The notes below the pieces were generated by a model. The model had not been told where the DNA came from. It worked only from the letters and a program-made list of their open reading frames with translations, and did not search any database. The position numbers and the translations under genes are program-made. Of a DNA stretch of 64,000 nucleotides, positions 1 to 53,320 are shown in pieces (the stretch's first letter is position 1; each line of letters starts with the position of its first letter). The DNA comes from Anaerolineales bacterium (lineage in GTDB: Bacteria > Chloroflexota > Anaerolineae > Anaerolineales > Villigracilaceae). The DNA lies in contig JAIXKJ010000003.1 of NCBI GenBank assembly GCA_026928255.1, forward strand, positions 147,833-211,832, read 5' to 3'.

Positions 1-2227
1 GCGGGATGTCGTAAATCGCCGCCGCCGTCGTCGCGTGAATGTCTTCGCCAGCGCGGAACGCCGCCAGCATAGATTCGTCTTGCGCCATGTGCGCGACGAT
101 GCGTAACTCGATTTGAGAGTAATCCACCGAAAGCAAAAGCGAACCTTCGGGCGCAATAAACCCATTGCGGACTTTGCGCCCGGTTTCGGTGCGAATGGGG
201 ATGTTTTGCAAGTTGGGGTTGTTGGACGAAAGCCGCCCGGTTACCGCGCCGATTTGGCTGTACGAGGTGTGCACGCGCCCCGTCTTTGAGTCGGCGACGG
301 CGGGCAGCGCGTCCACATAAGTGGATTTGAGTTTGGACAACTCGCGGTGTTCGAGGACGAAATCCAACACCGGGTGTTGCCCGCGCATAGCGTCCAACAC
401 GTCGGCGGAGGTGGAGTAAAAACCCGTCGCGGTTTTGCGCCCTCTGTCAGGCGGTTCGAGGCGCAGGTGGTTGAACAAAATGTCCGAAAGTTGTTGCGGC
501 GAATTGAGATTAAATTCTTTGCCGACGTGTCCGAAAATTTCGCGCTCGATGTCGCGCAGACGCGCCGCCAATTCTTTGGACATCGTTTCAAAAAACGGGA
601 CGTCAATCAACGCGCCGTTCATTTCCATTGCAGCGAGAACGGGCGTTAACGGCAGGTCAATTTTGTCTAAAATTTTTCGTCCTTGCGCGCGCTCTAATTC
701 TTTTTCTTCGAGCGGCATAAGGCGCAAAGTTGTTTCCGCGTCGGCGGCGGCGTATTGCGCGACGGCGTCCACCGCCGCTTGCGCCATGCTAATTTGCTTT
801 TTGCCTTTGCCAATCAGCGCTTCGATGCGCGTCATCTCTTCGCCTAATCGGTATTCGCTCAAATTTTTCAAACCGAGATGGCGCGACGCGGGGTCTACGA
901 TAAACTCCGCCAGCATGGTGTCAAAAGTCAGCGGCGAAACGGTCAACCCGTGCCGCGCTAAAATGATGTAATCAAATTTTGCGTTGTGCGCGACTTTGCC
1001 GATTTTTGGATTCGTCAACGGCGGCTTCAACGCGCGGATGACTTTTTCCAGCGCGAGATTTTTTCCGTCAATGTGTCCAATCGGAATGTAAAATCCTCGC
1101 CCCGCTTCAACCGCCAGCGAAATGCCGACCAACTCCGCGCTCATTTCTTCCGTGCTGGTCGTTTCGGTGTCGAAAGAAATCGCGTCGGCGTCGGATAATT
1201 CTTTGACCAGATTTTCCAACGCTTCGTCCGTGTTGACGATTACGACTTCGATGTTCGACGGTTTAATTTCCGCCGCAAGAGCGGGACGAGGCGCTTCTTC
1301 TGCGAACATGGAAAATTGTCCGCTTGGGTTGCGCGTCGGCGCGGACGGCGCGGCTTGGCTGATGGAATTCACCTTGGACAGAAGAGTCCGAAATTCCATT
1401 TCTTCAAAAAACGCTTTGAGTTTCGTCGCGTCAAAAGGCGCGACTTTGGCGTGTTCAAAATCAAATTGGACGTTTAACTCGGTGCGAATGAGCGCCAAAT
1501 CGCGGCTCATATACGCGGATTCTTTTCCTTCTTCCAATTTTCCGCGCCAGCGTTTTTCCACTTGGTCGAGGTTGGCGTAGATGGCGTCGAGCGTGTCAAA
1601 TTTTTCTAACAGCGCAATCGTCGTCTTTTCGCCGACTCCGCGCACGCCGGGAATATTGTCCGAAGCGTCGCCGACCAGCGCTTTATAGTCCACTACTTGA
1701 TTCGCGCGCACGCCGAGTTTTTTGACGACGTCTTCGTCGGAGAGGTAGGTTTGGTTGTCGCCTGCGAGGTAAACCGCCGTCCGTTCGTTGACCAGTTGCA
1801 GCAAGTCGCGGTCGCCTGTAACGATCTTCACGCCGAACCCTTTTTCGGCGGCGATGCGCGCCGCGCTGCCCAGCACGTCGTCCGCTTCGTAGCCGCTCAT
1901 TTCGAGGCGCGGGATGTTAAAGGCGTCCACCATCTCGCGGATGCGCTCAATCTGCGAACGCAAATCGTCGGTCATCTTTTCGCGGGTGGCTTTGTATTCG
2001 GGGTAAATTTCGTCGCGGAAGGTTTTGCCCACGTCGAAGGCGACGGCGAGATACTCGGGTCTTTCTTGTTCCAAAACGCGGATGAGTTCGCGGGCGAAGC
2101 CGTACACGCCTGCGGTGGGTTCGCCGCTTGAAGTTTGCCAGCGCGAACCGTCGCCGCCGGCGGTGAGGGCGAAATACATGCGGTAAGCGAGCGCGTGTCC
2201 GTCAATCAAATAAAGGGTAGGGGGCAT
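1..2227 (-). CDS. polA: DNA polymerase I (partial, 3' end beyond window start)
   Basis: Manual translation from ATG at 2227 gives MPPTLYLIDGHALAYRMYFAL...GEPTAGVYGF (5'-3' exonuclease), AFDTETT (ExoI motif) and TGRLSSNNPNLQNIPIR...DYSQIELRIVAH (Pol A motif). It is absent from the ORF track because it is open at the edge. Confidence 0.97.
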   Translation of the reverse strand, partial: MPPTLYLIDGHALAYRMYFALTAGGDGSRWQTSSGEPTAGVYGFARELIRVLEQERPEYLAVAFDVGKTFRDEIYPEYKATREKMTDDLRSQIERIREMVDAFNIPRLEMSGYEADDVLGSAARIAAEKGFGVKIVTGDRDLLQLVNERTAVYLAGDNQTYLSDEDVVKKLGVRANQVVDYKALVGDASDNIPGVRGVGEKTTIALLEKFDTLDAIYANLDQVEKRWRGKLEEGKESAYMSRDLALIRTELNVQFDFEHAKVAPFDATKLKAFFEEMEFRTLLSKVNSISQAAPSAPTRNPSGQFSMFAEEAPRPALAAEIKPSNIEVVIVNTDEALENLVKELSDADAISFDTETTSTEEMSAELVGISLAVEAGRGFYIPIGHIDGKNLALEKVIRALKPPLTNPKIGKVAHNAKFDYIILARHGLTVSPLTFDTMLAEFIVDPASRHLGLKNLSEYRLGEEMTRIEALIGKGKKQISMAQAAVDAVAQYAAADAETTLRLMPLEEKELERAQGRKILDKIDLPLTPVLAAMEMNGALIDVPFFETMSKELAARLRDIEREIFGHVGKEFNLNSPQQLSDILFNHLRLEPPDRGRKTATGFYSTSADVLDAMRGQHPVLDFVLEHRELSKLKSTYVDALPAVADSKTGRVHTSYSQIGAVTGRLSSNNPNLQNIPIRTETGRKVRNGFIAPEGSLLLSVDYSQIELRIVAHMAQDESMLAAFRAGEDIHATTAAAIYDIP

Positions 2228-2255
2228 GGTTGAATTCCGTTGCGCGTAAATAAAA

Positions 2256-2279
2256 GCGCAGAGCCATTATACTCTGCGC
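2256..2279 (-). terminator. Intrinsic terminator of the 2310-3953 gene, with the polA -10 box (TATAAT) in its loop
   Basis: Stem GCGCAGAG/CTCTGCGC followed by TTTTATTT on the minus strand; loop reads TATAATGG on the minus strand. Confidence 0.6.
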
Positions 2280-2309
2280 CGGAATTTATTTGAAAGCGTT
2301 TGCAAAAAA

Positions 2310-3953
2310 TTATGCGGGAATCGAATGGTCGCTGATGCCTTGATTTTTTCGCGTCTGACGGATGTAATCGCGGACTAACTGTTGCGGGTGCGGCTGCGAT
2401 CCGCCCATGATGAGGTAGCCCGACGCCCAGAAATCGCCCGAAGGATTCTCGCGTTTCAAACGCGGGAAGTTGGCGAAAATCTTTTCCGACGTTTGCTGGC
2501 GCATGATTCGCATTAAGTAGCCGGGCGAGGTGTTCGGTTTGACGTTGACGACCCATTGCAAATAGTCGGGGCGGACGGCGAGAAATTCCAAGCGCCAACC
2601 GTAGGCGATGCAAACGTTCGGCAGCCATTCGCCGAGTTGATCGGCGAGGTCGCCTGTGAGGTAATGCGAGGCGAAGCGCGGAATCATCAAGCAGGCGTAG
2701 GTGAGGTGATATAAGCCGGCCGAAATGGGTTCGGGAGTTAGTTTCTTCGCCGCTTCGGTGGAAGGGCTTTCGCGGGTAACGCCGCCGCCGTCGGCGCGCG
2801 GACGAGGCAGGGGCGTTTCGGGGCGCGTCTTCGGTTTGGGGCGCGAAGGCGCGGTAACTTCAACGTCGTCGAGCGAAATTTGATCGGTAGGAAAGGCTTT
2901 CGATTCTTGAGTCTGCGCCAGCGAAGGCGGGGTCGCATCGAGGCTGAACGCCGACGCGCTAGAAAGCAAGTCGGAGACGCGAGTTTGATTCGGGTCGAAA
3001 GGCTCTCGTTGCGGCGGAAGCGCGAAGTCGCGCGAAGTCAGCGGTTCGGGGTTGGGGGCGGGGACGTCGGCGAGGATGTTTGAGATGGAAGGGATGTCGG
3101 AGTTGTCGTCTTCGTCTTCGTCTTCGTCTTCGTCTTCGTCGTAGGCGGCGGGCGCGGCGGCGCGAGGCGAGGCTTTTTCCGCGCCGAAGTTTTTTATCAA
3201 CTGCCCGGCTTGAGCGCGGATGGTGCTGAACGGCGTTTCCGCGTCGAAGACCAACGCCAGAGTCGAGTCGGACGAGAGGCGCGAGGCGTAGAGCATGTGT
3301 TCGGCTTTTGTGCTTTCTAAACGGACGAAGCGCAAAAGGTCCGAGCCTTTGTCGTCGTCCCAGTTGCGGACGACGGTTTGAGCCACCTCTTTGGCGGCGT
3401 TTTGCGAAAGTCCGCCTGCGTATGCCCAGAGGTCGTTTTTCTTCGTGATTAATGCCGCCTGCGCGGAAGATTCTAACGTCATGCTGGCGAGGCGTTGCGC
3501 GGATTTGTTCGGGTCGCCGAGCCAGGGCATCCATTGCGCGGTTTCGCTGAAATGAGAAACGGGAAGCGCCGCCGATTCCGCTTTTGGCGCGGGGGGCGGG
3601 GTTTGCGGCTGGCTGAGCGCGTTCATAAAATTGGAGAGTCGAAAGGGTTTATTAACCATAATCCAAGGCGATAAAGCGTGAATAGATGAAAGGTCGCTTG
3701 ACTCGTCGCAGAGGATGGCAAGGTTGATGTTGGGGCGCACCATTCGCAGCGCCAAGCCGATTTCTAACGCCCAGTCTTTGCCAAGCGAAAAGTCAAGCAA
3801 CGCCATCGGGATTCCGATTTCGTTCGCTTTGACGATTGCCGCAGCCTTGCTGTTGACGACCAACACTCGGTAAAAGTTGGTCTCTTCCAGCGCGCGGCGA
3901 ATGGTTTCGCCGAGGCTGACAGACGGGGTAACTACCAGTAAATCAGCGGGCAT
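2310..3953 (-). CDS. Multidomain protein: receiver-like + roadblock/LC7-like + acidic/Pro-rich linker + C-terminal IS200/IS605 TnpA(Y1)-like domain
   Basis: N-terminal LLVV...ALLDFSL...KPF receiver pattern. C-terminal YHLTYACLMIPRF...RPDYLQWVV...FWASGY...DYIRQ parallels TnpA YHIVW.PKYR...MPDHVHLL...FWS.GY...YIENQ. Confidence 0.75.
   Translation of the reverse strand: MPADLLVVTPSVSLGETIRRALEETNFYRVLVVNSKAAAIVKANEIGIPMALLDFSLGKDWALEIGLALRMVRPNINLAILCDESSDLSSIHALSPWIMVNKPFRLSNFMNALSQPQTPPPAPKAESAALPVSHFSETAQWMPWLGDPNKSAQRLASMTLESSAQAALITKKNDLWAYAGGLSQNAAKEVAQTVVRNWDDDKGSDLLRFVRLESTKAEHMLYASRLSSDSTLALVFDAETPFSTIRAQAGQLIKNFGAEKASPRAAAPAAYDEDEDEDEDEDDNSDIPSISNILADVPAPNPEPLTSRDFALPPQREPFDPNQTRVSDLLSSASAFSLDATPPSLAQTQESKAFPTDQISLDDVEVTAPSRPKPKTRPETPLPRPRADGGGVTRESPSTEAAKKLTPEPISAGLYHLTYACLMIPRFASHYLTGDLADQLGEWLPNVCIAYGWRLEFLAVRPDYLQWVVNVKPNTSPGYLMRIMRQQTSEKIFANFPRLKRENPSGDFWASGYLIMGGSQPHPQQLVRDYIRQTRKNQGISDHSIPA
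3106..3140 (-). repeat. (GAAGAC)n hexamer microsatellite encoding the DEDEDEDEDED tract
   Basis: About 6 tandem TCGTCT units on the + strand. Confidence 0.8.
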
Positions 3954-4045
3954 GAGTCAAAGTGTATCACTAGCATTATATGCGCGCAAGCGACGGATGC
4001 GCGAGAACTTATCGTTTTTGTAACGGGTGTAGCGAATTGTAAGGT

Positions 4046-4618
4046 TCAGTCGAGTCCGCTTTCTAACGAGCGAAAGCCGAGCAGCGCCATCAGCGCTTCG
4101 GGCGGGAGGTCGGCGGCGGGCAATTCGACGTGATAGAGATTCTCGTTTTCGGCGCGTTCGCGCAGACTCTTCCAAAGCAGGTCGCGCTCTTCGCCTTCCA
4201 CGACCAGGTCGTTGAGCGTTTTTGCGTTGAGCAAATATTCGCCGGTCGAGTAGAGGAAGGTCAGGCGTTTCCATTTGTCGGTTTTGACCGACTCGCTCAG
4301 TTTTTCCAAACCGCCCAATTGGATTTTGAAATATTCTTCGCGGGCGCGCGGGTGATCGGCTTCGTCTTTGAGCAGTTCGCCGCGCGTGGTTAACTCATGT
4401 CCGCGCACGGCGGCGACGTACTCGATTTGTCCGCCCCTTTCTTTGAAGGAAGCGGGTTGATAAAACGCGAGATAATCCACGCTGATAATTTTGGGCGCGC
4501 GCCGCAACGGGATGCGATACCAGCCCAAGAGGCGCGCAATTTCCAAATCGCGCGGGTTGGGAATTAGGCAGACGAGGACTAAATCGGTAGGGCGCAACAT
4601 GAGGCGGAAGTCGGTCAT
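4046..4618 (-). CDS. Conserved hypothetical protein, PUA/EVE-like WYRIP domain (start may be ATG at 4600)
   Basis: VLVCLIPNPRDLEIARLLGWYRIP...YLAFYQP motif resembles the N-terminal domain I recall from Chloroflexi DUF559 nucleases. Confidence 0.55.
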   Translation of the reverse strand: MTDFRLMLRPTDLVLVCLIPNPRDLEIARLLGWYRIPLRRAPKIISVDYLAFYQPASFKERGGQIEYVAAVRGHELTTRGELLKDEADHPRAREEYFKIQLGGLEKLSESVKTDKWKRLTFLYSTGEYLLNAKTLNDLVVEGEERDLLWKSLRERAENENLYHVELPAADLPPEALMALLGFRSLESGLD

Positions 4619-4697: not shown

Positions 4698-4782
4698 CCC
4701 TCACCCTCACCCTAGCCCTCTCCCAGAGGGAGAGGGGACTCGGACTCCTTTCTCCCTCTGGGAGAAGGGTTGGGGATGAGGG
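4698..4782. repeat. REP-like composite palindrome, CCCTCACCC..CCCTCTCCC/GGGAGAGGG type
   Basis: CCCTCTCCCAGAGGGAGAGGGG hairpin followed by an inverted partner CTCCCTCTGGGAGAAGGG...GGGGATGAGGG. Confidence 0.75.
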
Positions 4783-4846: not shown

Positions 4847-6313
4847 TTACAAAAGCCCGACTTCGGCGTTGAACTCGGTAATCAATTCGTCAATCTCGTC
4901 GGCTTGAGTTTGGACGCTCGTCCAGTAATCGGCTTGATGCCATTGGGCTTGAATCTCGTCGTAGGTTTTGCCTTGCTGCTCGACCCAAGTGTAATATTTC
5001 AGATTATGCACGCGGCGGCGGTCGGGGTAGCGCAGTTCGAGCATGTTGTCGGTCGACTCTCCGCGCAGGTAGCGGGCGAAGTCGGCGGCGGCGCTCATCT
5101 CGTTGTATTCGCCAAGTTCCTGATGCATTTCGTGCAGACGCGAGCGGTAAAGTTCCATCGAATCGGTGAGGACGGTGATGAGGATGTCGTCTTCGCCCAA
5201 CTCGTAGTATTTGGCGGTCTTAATCGCCGAGAGCATGTTCGAGACGCCGGAGAAGCCGAGCAAGTCGAGGTTGCCGACGACCTCTTCTGGCACGCCCATT
5301 TTGACCAAATAGGCTTTGCCGTTTTCTTCGTTGAAGAGGCGCGCCAAGTTGACGACGGCGTTGTCGTCAATGGCGGTGATGACGTCGGTGTTTTTTGTGT
5401 TGTGCACCCAAGGCACATGCTTATCGCCGATGCCTTCGATGCGATGCGCGCCGAATCCGTTTTCGAGCAGGGTCGGGCATTGCAGCGCTTCGCTGGCGAC
5501 GATTTTAGAATCGGGGAATAATTTTTTCATGTAGTCGCCGCTGGCGATCGTCCCCGCCGAGCCGGTGGCGGAAATCATGCCGCGATAAACGCCGCGTGTC
5601 CCCGCCGCGTGGCGGAAGATTTCTTCCAGCGCGGCGCCGGTAACGGCGTAATGCCAAAGGTAGTTGCCGAACTCTTGAAATTGGTCGAAGATCATCACAT
5701 CTTGACCGGAGTTTCGCAGTTCCCAGCACTTGTCAAATATTTCTTTGACGTTGGATTCGGAGCCCGGCGTTTTGATGGTTTCGCCCGCGACTTTTTCCAG
5801 CCACTCGAAGCGCTCTTTCGACATGCCTTCGGGCAGAATGGCGATGGATTCGCAGCCGAGCAACGCCGAGTCGTACGCGCCGCCGCGACAGTAATTTCCC
5901 GTCGAGGGCCAGACCGCTTTTTGCGTAGTTGGGTCAAATTGCCCGGTGACTAAACGCGGCACGAGACAAGAAAACGCCGCGCCGACTTTGTGCGCGCCGG
6001 TCGGAAACCATTTGCCGACCAGCGCCAAAATGCGCGCTTTGACTCCCGTCAGCGAAGAGGGCAGCTCGATGTAGTTGACTCCGCCGAAAGTCCCGCCGGC
6101 GGCGGTGGGTTGATTCTTCCAAGTGATGCGGAAGAGGTTGCGCGGGTGAATGTCCCACAGCCCGACGCTTTTTAGTTCCTCTTGAATCTTCGCCGGAATT
6201 TTGGACGGGTCTTTCATTTGCGCGTAGGTGGGGATGATGATGTTGCGTTCTTTGGCGCGTTGGATGGAGCGCGCGCGTCGAGCGCTGTCAATCGTTAGGT
6301 CAATTTTGGTCAT
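4847..6313 (-). CDS. Fold-type II PLP-dependent enzyme (cysteine synthase/TrpB superfamily)
   Basis: PTGAHKVG (PLP lysine), WPSTGNY, SATGSAGT and HRIEGIG motifs. Confidence 0.85.
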   Translation of the reverse strand: MTKIDLTIDSARRARSIQRAKERNIIIPTYAQMKDPSKIPAKIQEELKSVGLWDIHPRNLFRITWKNQPTAAGGTFGGVNYIELPSSLTGVKARILALVGKWFPTGAHKVGAAFSCLVPRLVTGQFDPTTQKAVWPSTGNYCRGGAYDSALLGCESIAILPEGMSKERFEWLEKVAGETIKTPGSESNVKEIFDKCWELRNSGQDVMIFDQFQEFGNYLWHYAVTGAALEEIFRHAAGTRGVYRGMISATGSAGTIASGDYMKKLFPDSKIVASEALQCPTLLENGFGAHRIEGIGDKHVPWVHNTKNTDVITAIDDNAVVNLARLFNEENGKAYLVKMGVPEEVVGNLDLLGFSGVSNMLSAIKTAKYYELGEDDILITVLTDSMELYRSRLHEMHQELGEYNEMSAAADFARYLRGESTDNMLELRYPDRRRVHNLKYYTWVEQQGKTYDEIQAQWHQADYWTSVQTQADEIDELITEFNAEVGLL

Positions 6314-51942: not shown

Positions 51943-52746
51943 ATGGCTCTACGCGGTAATTTAAGAGATTTTACAATCACCCAACTTTTGAACTTGGTCA
52001 ACCTTGCCGGCAAAACGGGCACGTTGGTCATTGACGGCGTTTCGGAACAAGCCTTTGTCTCGTTCCGCGAGGGAAAGTTGGCGTATGCGCGCATCGGCAA
52101 AGACGACGGACGTTTGGCGTCCGTGTTGTATAAAGCCAGCAAACTAAACGCCAACCAATACAAAGCCATCATAGACCGCGCCGGGCAAATCTCCGATAAG
52201 GAGTTAGGCTTGGTGTTGATCAACGCGGGCTACGTTTCGCGCGAAGACATTATTTTGAATTTGCAAGCCTACTTCACGGATATGGTGCGCCGCCTCTTTA
52301 CTTGGGTGGAAGGCATCTTCCGCTTTGAAGCGGAGATGATGCCGCCCGAAGACCGCATTAACGTGCGCCTCGATTTGGAAAACATCATCATCGAAGGCTC
52401 GCGTCAACTGCGCGAGTTGGAACAGTTGCAAGACGAAATTCCCAGCCTCGACATGGCGTTGAAATTCACCGACCGCCCGCGAGACAACGTCAACTTGAGC
52501 GTGGACGAATGGAAAGTGGTCAAATTTGTAGATCCGAAAAACACCATGCGCCAAATTGCGAAGACCAACAAATTGTCGGACGTGGAAGTGCGGCGCATTG
52601 TGTACGGCTTGCTGCAAGCGGGCTTGGTCGAATTAGTCCGCCCGGCCGACATGAAACCGCAAACCGTCAAACCGCTCGCCCCCGAAGAAGTAGAAGAGAA
52701 GAAAAATCTCGTCAATAAACTGATCGGTCGCATTCGTTCGTTATAA
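51943..52746 (+). CDS. PATAN/DUF4388 domain protein with winged-helix-like C-terminus
   Basis: MALRGNLRDFTITQLLNLV...KTGTL...FREGKL; LFTWVEGIFRFE. Confidence 0.88.
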   Translation: MALRGNLRDFTITQLLNLVNLAGKTGTLVIDGVSEQAFVSFREGKLAYARIGKDDGRLASVLYKASKLNANQYKAIIDRAGQISDKELGLVLINAGYVSREDIILNLQAYFTDMVRRLFTWVEGIFRFEAEMMPPEDRINVRLDLENIIIEGSRQLRELEQLQDEIPSLDMALKFTDRPRDNVNLSVDEWKVVKFVDPKNTMRQIAKTNKLSDVEVRRIVYGLLQAGLVELVRPADMKPQTVKPLAPEEVEEKKNLVNKLIGRIRSL

Positions 52747-52780
52747 TTTTTCAGACCGAGAGGATAGAGGACTTAATATT

Positions 52781-53320
52781 ATGCAGCAAACAGTCAAAAT
52801 GGTAATTACCGGTCCGTTCAGCGCTGGCAAAACGCAATTCATTCAATCCGTCAGCGAAATTGACGTAGTCGCCACAGAACGCAAAATCTCGTCCGCCGAA
52901 GAGCGCTCCGTCAAATCGGCGACGACCGTAGCGATGGACTTCGGGCGCATCACCGTAGATCAAGATTTGACCTTATTCTTATTCGGCACGCCCGGTCAAA
53001 AGCGCTTCGACTTTATGTGGGAAATTCTCTCCGAAGGCATGTTGGGCTTCATCGTCATGGTGGACAGCACCCGCCCCGAAACCTTCCGCGAAGCGCGTTC
53101 GATTCTCGAAACCTTCCGCGCCTACGCGCCGACTCCTTTCGTCGTCGCCGCCAACAAACAAGATAAAGAAGACGCCTGGGATTTAGAAGACATGGGACAC
53201 GCCCTGCGCCTCGACAAAAGCACAAAACTTCTGCCTTGCGTGGCGGTAGATCGAAACTCCGTAAAAACAGTTTTGCTTGAATTGCTGTACAGCATTATGA
53301 GCGAGATGGAAGAAAAATAA
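52781..53320 (+). CDS. Small Ras-like GTPase, MglA/CvnD type
   Basis: G1 GPFSAGKT, G2 TTVAMDFG, G3 GTPGQ.RF, G4 NKQD. Confidence 0.9.
   Translation: MQQTVKMVITGPFSAGKTQFIQSVSEIDVVATERKISSAEERSVKSATTVAMDFGRITVDQDLTLFLFGTPGQKRFDFMWEILSEGMLGFIVMVDSTRPETFREARSILETFRAYAPTPFVVAANKQDKEDAWDLEDMGHALRLDKSTKLLPCVAVDRNSVKTVLLELLYSIMSEMEEK

Follow-up and report, generated by a model that had tools for sequence, protein, structure and literature searches.

What does a transposase-like domain do at the end of a signalling-type protein that is encoded next to DNA polymerase I? This question is raised by an open reading frame (the fusion gene; Table 1) in a 64,000-nucleotide stretch of contig JAIXKJ010000003.1 from an Anaerolineales bacterium, hereafter the window. 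The initial annotation, made from the letters of the DNA, described its product as an atypical receiver domain and a roadblock-like region joined to a domesticated, catalytically dead IS200-type TnpA (Y1) domain. Hundreds of database entries for the protein are labelled "transposase" or "RayT", the latter being the name that JGI gives to some family members, and literature searches found no description of the architecture.

Table 1. Features of the fusion gene and its neighbourhood, in window coordinates
Feature	Position	Strand	Basis or remark
Fusion ORF: pseudo-receiver, roadblock, disordered linker, Y1 domain predicted to be dead	2310..3953	-	547 aa
Pseudo-receiver domain, residues 1-115	3609..3953	-	AF2, Foldseek, alignments
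D54	3792-3794	-	kept
K102-P-F104	3642-3650	-	kept
MglB-like roadblock/LC7 domain, residues 141-257	3183..3533	-	AF2, Foldseek, profile
Acidic/Pro-rich disordered linker, residues 258-405	2739..3182	-	pLDDT <50
Linker motif I-S-N-I-L-A-D-V-P-A-P-N-P, residues 289-303	3045-3089	-	recurs in distant members
Y1 domain predicted to be dead, residues 406-540	2334..2738	-	sequence matches, AF2, Foldseek
HUH position, Y464-L-Q466 (context R461-P-D-Y464-L-Q466-W)	2556-2564	-	alignment
Tyr position, Y530 (helix D529-Y530-I-R-Q)	2364-2366	-	alignment
polA (DNA polymerase I), N-terminal 742 aa in window	2..2227	-	downstream neighbour
Spacer hairpin GGCGCAGAG-TATAATGG-CTCTGCGC, then T-run	2255..2280	-	between fusion stop codon and polA start
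Promoter-like element of fusion gene: TTGCGC, 17 nt, (GTGA)TACACT	3961..3989	-	ends 7 nt before ATG

Domain architecture of the fusion protein

The C-terminus had been said to follow the Y1 transposase pattern, and sequence models, structural profiles and predicted fold all agree. Pfam Y1_Tnp matches residues 415-533 at 50.3 bits (cut-off 23; E = 3e-13), the NCBIfam model transpos_IS200 scores 56.8 bits on the same domain (cut-off 55), and sequence-profile matches in the PDB are to the IS200-family structures 2ec2, 2fyx and 2xm3 (E from 1e-8 to 1e-6). The AlphaFold model of residues 403-547 reaches a pLDDT of 90.6 when built from a domain-only alignment with paralogues, the region falling below 50 in the full-length AF2 model. 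With this domain model as query, the best 29 Foldseek matches in the PDB are all IS200/IS605 TnpA proteins (TM about 0.75, E from 1e-11 to 1e-7). The likeness to TnpA of ISHp608, ISDra2, Sulfolobus (2ec2) and Deinococcus (2fyx) therefore covers both the fold, β-α-β-β-α-β plus a C-terminal helix, and the sequence. However, those enzymes are stand-alone proteins of about 130-155 residues, whereas the Y1 domain here is the C-terminus of a 547-residue multidomain protein.

The second difference from TnpA concerns the active site: the fusion protein lacks the His pair of the HUH motif, and its family does not conserve the nucleophilic Tyr. The HUH position does read PDYLQ in the window protein, as noted at the outset, and across 110 diverse members it varies as Y/H/F-L-Q/L/H; not one of the 110 combines HUH with Tyr. 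H-L-H occurs in one of them, with Phe at the Tyr position, and one further lineage with H-A-H also has Phe there. The claim that the catalytic-Tyr helix is kept holds for the window protein and its near clade but not for the family, since 93 of the 110 diverse members have Phe at this position, which is therefore unlikely to be under selection as a nucleophile. The invariant residues include P425, R426, W453, R454, W467, S489, N503-P-S-G-D-F-W-A and R535. From this loss of residues across the family, the domain is predicted to be unable to cut DNA, in line with the proposal that it is domesticated and dead. The window protein does have Tyr at 464 and 530 and Gln at 466, and a still active Y1 nuclease or transposase of an unconventional kind could be imagined to use these three residues; because the same positions vary freely in the family, such an activity is highly improbable.

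The RAYT (TnpA-REP) proteins, represented by 4er8 from E. coli, are likewise products of domesticated, single-copy Y1-family host genes. RAYTs retain both HUH and Tyr, and the REPs on which they act flank their genes (PMC3333891, PMC6006769). In contrast, the fusion family lacks the HUH and Tyr pair and has no REP array, the hairpin near the fusion gene being unique in the window. Its Y1 domain also superposes less well on 4er8 (TM 0.45-0.5) than on IS200 TnpA (0.75). The published classification of TnpA-Y1 proteins deals only with those that have the HuH/Y core, and the fusion family is not described there.

The N-terminal part adopts a (βα)5 receiver fold in the AF2 model (pLDDT about 87), with CheY4 (4h60; TM 0.84) and Spo0F (TM 0.81) as Foldseek matches. 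At least 90% of diverse members have D54, and K102-P103-F104 is retained as well. In place of the acidic pair that follows strand 1, the window protein reads T-P-S and essentially all members T-P or S-P, the strand-4 Thr/Ser is C82 in the window protein and Cys, Ile or Pro family-wide, and Pfam Response_reg scores 11.8-13.7 bits, below its cut-off of 30.2. Fold and alignments thus bear out an atypical receiver that keeps Asp and KPF and has lost the acidic pocket. With the acidic Mg2+ pocket absent in essentially all members, control by phosphorylation, also put forward in the initial annotation, is unlikely. A phosphorylation-controlled response regulator, with DNA binding by the Y1-like domain as its output, would be consistent with the receiver fold, with the family-wide retention of Asp54 and K-P-F, and with the "CheY-like" label of some members in source annotations. 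It is nevertheless quite improbable, given the loss of the Mg2+ pair and of the strand-4 Thr/Ser, a Pfam score far under the cut-off, and a gene cluster that has no histidine kinase at the loci examined.

For the middle domain, AF2 predicts the order α-β-β-α-β-β-β-α (pLDDT about 80), Foldseek finds the MglB structures 6hjm, 6h5b, 1j3w and 3t1r (TM 0.58-0.66, E about 1e-5), and the eight best PDB matches of its sequence profile are all MglB (E 0.003-0.03). The three agree with the roadblock/LC7 (MglB-like) assignment made from secondary-structure order. Unlike MglB, the fusion protein does not match Pfam Robl_LC7 and its gene has no GTPase gene beside it, and its roadblock domain is joined to receiver-like and dead transposase domains. 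Of the Foldseek matches that span the first two domains, the best are Rag/Gtr GTPases (E about 1e-7), in which an α/β switch-type domain is followed by a roadblock; the N-terminal domain here is instead a receiver fold without a P-loop, and the likeness is an architectural analogy, with an rmsd of 15-17 Å that results from different packing.

The linker carries conserved short motifs; the one in Table 1 follows the pattern hydrophobic-x-x-hydrophobic-hydrophobic-x-[DE]-V-P-[PA]-P-x-P and is found in members that are only 32-45% identical. Polarity proteins of the RomR/FrzS type combine a receiver or pseudo-receiver with a Pro-rich disordered region and a C-terminal module. The fusion protein resembles them in overall layout (N-terminal receiver-type domain, Pro/acid-rich linker, C-terminal domain); its C-terminal module has the TnpA fold, and its genomic partner is polA rather than motility genes.

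Distribution, constraint and gene context

Full-length homologues of the fusion protein are 59-80% identical to it, and the N-terminal module is carried by more than 900 clusters at 50% identity; all named sources of the family are Anaerolineales or Chloroflexota. The fusion gene was found in 29 of 31 relatives, among them all 18 of the genus, with one match in each near-complete relative. In the window's own genome (99% complete) the dead-type gene is single-copy, and the only other Y1 gene, of the canonical HUH+Y type, lies at a different locus. Purifying selection is strong: the Y1-like and roadblock domains, the two best-conserved parts, have dN/dS values of 0.046 and 0.06, against 0.13 for the receiver and 0.22-0.57 for the linkers (0.22 for that of residues 258-405), in a comparison where dS is about 1.7-1.9 and synonymous sites are saturated. 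The spread over so many clusters, the single copy and this selection rule out a fusion that is unique to one genome and decaying.

The mobile-element traits of IS200/IS605 TnpA are likewise missing. There is one copy at a fixed, syntenic locus; no tnpB stands beside the gene in the window or at the locus of a close relative, and no IS ends are evident near it, as the initial annotation had remarked. The same features count against an active nuclease or transposase. Because it is single-copy, present throughout the order and fixed in position beside polA, the fusion gene is a vertically inherited host gene of Anaerolineae and not an insertion sequence. Labels such as "transposase" and "RayT" consequently inflate mobile-element counts in Anaerolineae genomes from wastewater and sediments. 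The family represents a widespread and constrained version of Y1 without the catalytic residues, in a signalling-type protein tied to Pol I, whereas RAYTs keep theirs.

The housekeeping context reported beside polA is real: polA starts 82 nt downstream of the fusion gene on the same strand. Of 75 close loci, 69 have polA immediately 3' on the same strand; in loci of other families it is immediately 3' in seven of nine, one intervening gene being present in the remaining two; these counts come from a single bacterial class, and the repeats are not independent evidence. The order fusion-polA-TPR recurs in three distant members (about 32-43% identical), with gaps of 7-58 nt between fusion gene and polA and of -4 to 94 nt to the next gene, and the genes upstream of the cluster differ in each of the three. 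The TPR gene is also nearby in a close relative. The conserved unit is a three-gene cluster of the fusion gene, polA and a gene for a TPR protein of about 770 residues, tightly packed in distant lineages, and this cluster is the strongest contextual clue to function. In one lineage (L023) a receiver-roadblock gene without the Y1 domain lies upstream of polA, and the Y1 part is therefore dispensable for the association with polA. The 190-aa ORF upstream of the fusion gene has no match in Pfam, NCBIfam, PHROG or PDB. Membership in a defence system was considered and rejected, PADLOC having given no match for the fusion gene or its neighbours.

The MglB-like domain raises a different possibility, namely that the protein regulates a small Ras-like GTPase as a GAP, GEF or platform of MglB type, with a role in polarity, motility or filament development; the Y1 domain would then serve docking or localisation only, and polA would be incidental. 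Apart from fold and profile of the middle domain, the combination of receiver and roadblock recalls the Rag/Gtr layout of switch domain and roadblock, and some standalone dead-Y1 paralogues lie near MotAB, MCP and EAL-HDOD genes. Orphan MglB homologues are numerous, and none had been characterised at the time of one report (PMC4316618). The GTPase encoded at 52781 in the window, which the initial annotation had suggested as the missing partner, has no adjacent roadblock gene. However, it is encoded 49 kb away, is paired with a DUF4388 protein, is weakly MglA-like (E about 1e-3) with best matches of the Arf/Rab type, and is tied to the fusion protein solely by the MglB-like roadblock; as a partner it is not upheld. 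Neither in the window, where the gene at 52781 is the nearest one, nor in the relatives examined is a small-GTPase gene part of the cluster or close to it, and the operon with polA and TPR, the feature that is conserved most strongly, would be left unexplained. A role as a GTPase regulator is thus distinctly unlikely.

The spacer hairpin and other candidate signals

In the spacer between the fusion gene and polA, a terminator-like site overlaps a promoter-like TTCAAA-17-TATAAT (10/12), so that the loop of the hairpin holds the TATAAT that is the putative -10 box of polA. A total of 80 related loci carry this stem, one copy in each. CGCAGAG/CTCTGCG is unchanged in 32 of 32 distinct copies, with seven invariant pairs and a covarying flanking pair, while the loop ranges from 8 to 25 nt. 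A covariance model of the hairpin found no second copy in the window and none beside standalone paralogues or at distant family loci. In the close lineage L036 a different terminator takes its place and the Y1-like domain is unchanged.

Upstream of the fusion gene, the pattern CTTGA/CTTGC...GTGATA(A/C)ACT is kept in 78 upstream regions, and the element in Table 1 is probably the promoter of the gene; the mRNA is possibly leaderless. In the window's clade we propose, from these motifs, that the fusion gene is its own transcription unit, with a predicted promoter and a terminator hairpin that carries the -10 box of polA.

These features suggest a further explanation, in which the protein regulates its own locus by recognising a nucleic-acid structure: its dead Y1 domain would bind the spacer hairpin, as single-stranded DNA, cruciform or RNA terminator, and so control termination of its own transcript, the polA promoter or both. 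The invariant stem with its covarying flank, present once per locus despite saturated synonymous sites, argues for such a role, and fixed arms with a variable loop fit recognition of a hairpin rather than of a rigid double-stranded operator. The hairpin also sits exactly at the locus that encodes a TnpA-type domain and overlaps both promoter-like and terminator-like sites. On the other hand, it is absent from distant members, where the gap is only 7-58 nt, and from the loci of standalone paralogues, and L036 has exchanged it without change in the Y1-like domain; conservation of the protein is therefore independent of the hairpin, and regulation of its own locus is unlikely. The idea that the hairpin is a relic IS end or an obligatory ligand was set aside, the evidence against it being the single site, the absence elsewhere and the loss in L036.

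The REP-like hairpins noted upstream of the gene (about 4710-4774) are present, but within the window they form a single site, no connection with the protein emerged, and a REP link was rejected. An element related to this hairpin pair occurs at non-homologous sites in two other species, and the pair is thus a dispersed small element. Searches for known RNA families at the palindromes gave only chance, sub-threshold matches to miRNA models.

A possible partner of Pol I and the standalone paralogues

The substrate of IS200/IS605 TnpA proteins is single-stranded DNA of the lagging strand, and they bind hairpins at subterminal positions. The reading that we favour, tentatively and at a little under an even chance, is that this exapted dead-Y1 host protein partners Pol I without catalytic activity, by binding nucleic acid or as a tether. 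The dead Y1 domain may keep its grip on single-stranded or hairpin nucleic acid, or may instead dock proteins. Dimerisation and a regulatory platform would come from the roadblock and pseudo-receiver part, and the linker motifs might dock partners such as the TPR scaffold. Together, they could recruit or regulate Pol I at single-stranded or structured DNA, for instance during lagging-strand gap filling or repair.

Several observations weigh against this partnership with Pol I. In the window's clade a terminator-like hairpin lies between the two genes and each has a promoter-like site of its own, and co-expression with polA is therefore not obvious there. Lineage L023 keeps the association with polA without Y1, and the MglB-like domain fits small-GTPase signalling as much as DNA metabolism. 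A more specific version, rather unlikely in our estimate, is that a transposase hairpin-recognition module became an accessory or regulatory factor of Pol I that reads structured single-stranded nucleic acid, including the hairpin at the polA -10 box, and is coupled through platform and linker to Pol I and the TPR scaffold.

On this more specific version, the control of replication or repair in bacteria would include a component of transposon origin that had not been described before. Should the protein recognise structured single-stranded DNA, or dock to Pol I, it would represent a type of accessory factor for replication or repair that is new and stems from a mobile element, and it would give a first way into the function of an orphan MglB-like domain.

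Standalone dead-Y1 paralogues are also present in related genomes, where their operons include genes for an Mrr-like nuclease, a TPR protein and a sensor kinase. A dead Y1 domain beside a TPR protein is thus a recurrent theme, shared by the fusion cluster and the paralogue operons, and the paralogue operons count in favour of the Pol I reading. Specific homology between the TPR partners of the two kinds of operon was rejected; they are alike only through generic TPR similarity, which also counts against the Pol I reading. PADLOC matches the Mrr-like partner of the paralogues to the candidate system PDC-S02.

Domain composition and residue loss in the fusion protein

The last ~135 residues of the fusion protein match Pfam Y1_Tnp (E=3e-13; 50.3 bits, cut-off 23), its C-terminus also matches NCBIfam transpos_IS200 (56.8 bits, cut-off 55), and the profile of the family finds the solved IS200-type transposases 2ec2, 2fyx, and 2xm3. 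When the full-length alignment was replaced by a domain-only alignment including more distant paralogues, the AlphaFold model of the Y1-like domain reached a pLDDT of 90.6; all 29 best PDB matches of this model are IS200/IS605 TnpA (TM ~0.75), with E. coli RAYT well behind (TM 0.45-0.5). In the full-length AlphaFold model, a (beta-alpha)5 domain spans residues 1-115 (pLDDT ~87) and an alpha-beta-beta-alpha-beta-beta-beta-alpha domain residues ~141-257 (pLDDT ~80), followed by disorder across residues 258-405. By Foldseek, the first domain resembles CheY4 and Spo0F (TM 0.81-0.84) and the second resembles MglB structures (TM 0.58-0.66), while the two-domain matches of the N-terminal half are Rag/Gtr GTPases with their switch and roadblock domains (E ~1e-7). 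Because Thermus and Myxococcus MglB are also the eight best PDB sequences for the middle-domain profile (E 0.003-0.03, whole-domain alignments), the middle domain is predicted from sequence as well as fold to be an MglB-like roadblock. The disordered region contains a motif, hydrophobic-x-x-hydrophobic-hydrophobic-x-[DE]-V-P-[PA]-P-x-P, that persists to ~32% overall identity (I-S-N-I-L-A-D-V-P-A-P-N-P, residues 289-303, in the window) and could be the type of short peptide used for scaffold-protein binding.

The initial annotation had correctly placed Y464-L-Q466 at the HUH position and Tyr530 in the Tyr helix (D-Y530-I-R-Q), and the catalytic death it proposed extends to the whole family: in a census of 110 diverse representatives, HUH and Tyr are combined in none. 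The first His position is occupied by Y in 79, H in 10, and F in 10, the second by Q in 55, L in 17, and H in 16, and the nucleophile position by Phe in 93 and Tyr in 17. The sole H-L-H member has Phe at the nucleophile position, as does one lineage of the same order with H-A-H. The Tyr that had been described as kept is invariant in the near clade of the window, but only there, so Tyr530 does not indicate that chemistry has been retained. Near-invariance is seen instead at other residues (P425-R426, W453-R454, W467, S489, N503-P-S-G-D-F-W-A, R535, and Q538-G539), which argues for a conserved, non-catalytic function of the TnpA fold.

The description of the receiver-like domain was equally accurate, with D54 and K102-P-F104 kept and T-P-S where the acidic pair is expected. 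Virtually all diverse members have T-P, S-P, or similar pairs in place of the acidic pair, and the strand-4 Thr/Ser is missing across the family, D54 and K-P-F still being present; the domain is a predicted pseudo-receiver family-wide. From established receiver chemistry, the loss of the acidic pair and of the strand-4 Thr/Ser makes ordinary Mg2+-dependent phosphorylation improbable, and the control by phosphorylation suggested earlier is unlikely in that form.

Coordinates of the fusion gene and of associated features (window positions unless a related locus, L, is named)
Feature	Position	Strand	Description
Terminator-like hairpin	2255-2280 (CM match 2247-2286)	minus	in the 82-nt fusion-polA spacer
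Fusion gene	2310..3953	minus	ORF, product 547 aa
Promoter-like element of fusion gene	3961-3989	minus	TTGCGC-17-TACACT, GTGA before TACACT
190-aa ORF	4046-4618	minus	directly upstream of fusion gene; conserved in 44/74 close loci
Double hairpin element	4704-4774 (REP-like hairpins 4710-4774)		upstream of fusion gene
PLP-dependent protein (PALP, cysteine-synthase-like)	4847-6313	minus	488 aa
DUF4388 + GTPase pair	51943-53320	plus	DUF4388 protein with C-terminal HTH-like region, then 179-aa GTPase
Canonical Y1 gene	L001 1492-1956 (own genome, contig C5)		154-aa HUH+Tyr, RAYT/COG1943 kind
Receiver-roadblock gene without Y1 domain	L023 4707-5789	minus	360 aa, overlaps polA start; one family of the order
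Dead-Y1 operon, kind 1	L025-L028, L032, L033 (e.g. L025 2446-5950)		six of the examined loci
Dead-Y1 paralogue, kind 2	L024, L029, L031		three loci; neighbours MotA/MotB-like, MCP, EAL-HDOD, and DUF1521 proteins
Palindromic-element loci	L039, L048, L054, L055, L061, L068, L078, L083, L117		~40-130 nt past fusion terminator

Family conservation and linkage to polA

More than 2000 proteins match the fusion protein over its full length. The best 120 of these are 513-561 aa long and 61-78% identical, their named organisms all belong to Anaerolineales or Chloroflexota, and their database labels read 'transposase' or 'RayT'. With the N-terminal 260 residues as query, 920 clusters were retrieved at E<=1e-3 from 1.8 billion cluster representatives; 113 of the best 150 contain a Y1-like domain, and the others look like truncated gene calls. 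A fusion match is present in 29 of 31 sampled relatives, including 18/18 of the genus. Of 469 related stretches confirmed in species-representative genomes, the best 80 are almost all labelled as Anaerolineae or Chloroflexota MAGs. In a codon analysis of 78 orthologues, with dS saturated (~1.7-1.9), dN/dS is lowest in the Y1-like domain (0.046) and the roadblock (0.06), higher in the receiver-like domain (0.13) and the disordered region (0.22), and highest in the short first linker (0.57). The 920 clusters, the occurrence in relatives, and the low dN/dS indicate a conserved family rather than a unique and decaying fusion. The genome of the window (99% complete) has exactly one fusion gene, and its sole other Y1 gene, located elsewhere, is canonical (PDHLHFL ... 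YIMRQKEHH). A 417-aa ORF adjoins this canonical gene.

The window begins inside polA, which starts 82 nt downstream of the fusion gene on the same strand. polA is the next gene downstream in 69 of the 75 close loci long enough to show it (91-561 nt, median 132); among nine genomes from other families of the order, seven have the same arrangement and two have one gene in between, with gaps of 0-13 nt in three of the nine. Three very divergent members (~32-43% identity, long contigs) share the order fusion, polA, and a protein of ~770 aa made up entirely of TPRs; the gaps measure 7-58 nt and -4 to 94 nt, and the genes upstream of the fusion are unrelated from case to case. A TPR gene lies two small genes past polA in one close relative. 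Because the receiver-roadblock part occurs alone in the L023 lineage, it is the N-terminal module that constantly accompanies polA, and in that lineage the association does not require the Y1 domain. It is highly probable that the product of the fusion gene is a conserved receiver-like/MglB-like host protein, linked to polA, whose Y1 domain has been domesticated and is catalytically dead. Tentatively, in a reading slightly short of evenly balanced, this protein would be a partner of Pol I and a TPR scaffold that binds nucleic acid or acts as a tether but does not catalyse.

Intergenic hairpins and the upstream region

The spacer hairpin reads GGCGCAGAG-TATAATGG-CTCTGCGC, then TTTTATTT. It is scored as an intrinsic terminator and also as a promoter, in which TTCAAA lies 17 nt upstream of the loop TATAAT, a candidate -10 box for polA. 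In each of 80 related loci the 7-bp stem of this hairpin (CGCAGAG/CTCTGCG) is present as a single copy, which almost always directly follows the fusion gene. All seven pairs are invariant in 32 distinct copies and the next pair covaries (A-U/G-C), while the flanks are scrambled, in line with the saturated dS. In a clade of 53-56% identity, 13-25-nt GC-rich loops replace the TATAAT loop and the outer stem sequence is the same; a constant stem with a changing loop would fit hairpin recognition better than a rigid double-stranded operator. That the stem is conserved despite saturated synonymous sites could point to binding of this hairpin by the fusion protein. However, the hairpin was not found in distant family members or in the loci of standalone paralogues, and one close lineage has a different terminator in its place, with TATAAT kept and the protein unchanged, so that binding is a minority hypothesis. 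No second copy is present within the 64-kb window, and Rfam gave no match. The promoter-like element ends 7 nt before the fusion ATG in 78 loci (family pattern CTTGA/C...GTGATA(A/C)ACT), a position that suggests a leaderless transcript. Many relatives carry insertions of long palindromic elements, with ends GTCATTGCGAGG...CCTCGCAATGAC, in the stretch from the terminator hairpin to polA, and some loci also have them elsewhere; the window has none.

The REP-like hairpins reported upstream of the fusion gene are real, but within the window they are found at that site only and have no demonstrated tie to the fusion protein. Because the ~40-nt core of the double hairpin (ACCCTCACCCTA.CCCTCTCCCA.A.GGGAGAGGGGA) recurs in two other species (L069, L081) at a different site, between the conserved terminator and polA, it is taken as a small dispersed REP/MITE-like element. 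Searches of Pfam, NCBIfam, PHROGs, PADLOC, and PDB sequences gave no match for the 190-aa ORF. The PALP protein greatly exceeds CysK in length and scores far below every NCBIfam equivalog cut-off; in close relatives, too, its gene is the second one upstream of the fusion gene.

The GTPase at 52781, known systems, and standalone paralogues

The protein at 52781, proposed in the initial annotation as the partner of the roadblock, is a small Ras-superfamily GTPase (Pfam ATP_bind_1, Ras, Arf) with a P-loop (GPFSAGKT), T-P-G-Q, and NKQD. The partnership gained no support: the neighbour is a DUF4388 protein, similarity to MglA is marginal, and no roadblock gene adjoins the GTPase. The GTPase and its neighbour form an orphan module. 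Since MglB homologues that are themselves orphans are common and were uncharacterised (PMC4316618), the partnership is conceivable.

Fold and sequence place the C-terminus with IS200/IS605 TnpA, although the catalytic and mobility features that define TnpA are missing. RAYTs, unlike the fusion protein, retain HUH/Tyr and sit among REPs (PMC3333891), and the TnpA-Y1 classification in the literature covers HuH/Y-core proteins only (PMC6006769). Literature searches found no description of the receiver-roadblock-dead-Y1 architecture.

The same dead-type Y1 domain forms standalone 140-220-aa proteins (37-47% identical, YLQ/YFQ variants) in other genomes of the genus, and none in the window's own genome. 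In the kind-1 operons the dead-Y1 gene is accompanied by genes for an Mrr-like (Mrr_N+Mrr_cat) restriction-endonuclease-fold protein, a TPR protein, and a 7TM-PAS histidine kinase. The Mrr-like protein matches the PADLOC candidate system PDC-S02, and a defence-like or signalling role is possible for the operon. At the level of domain types only, the recurring theme of dead Y1, DNA enzyme, and TPR protein is suggestive.
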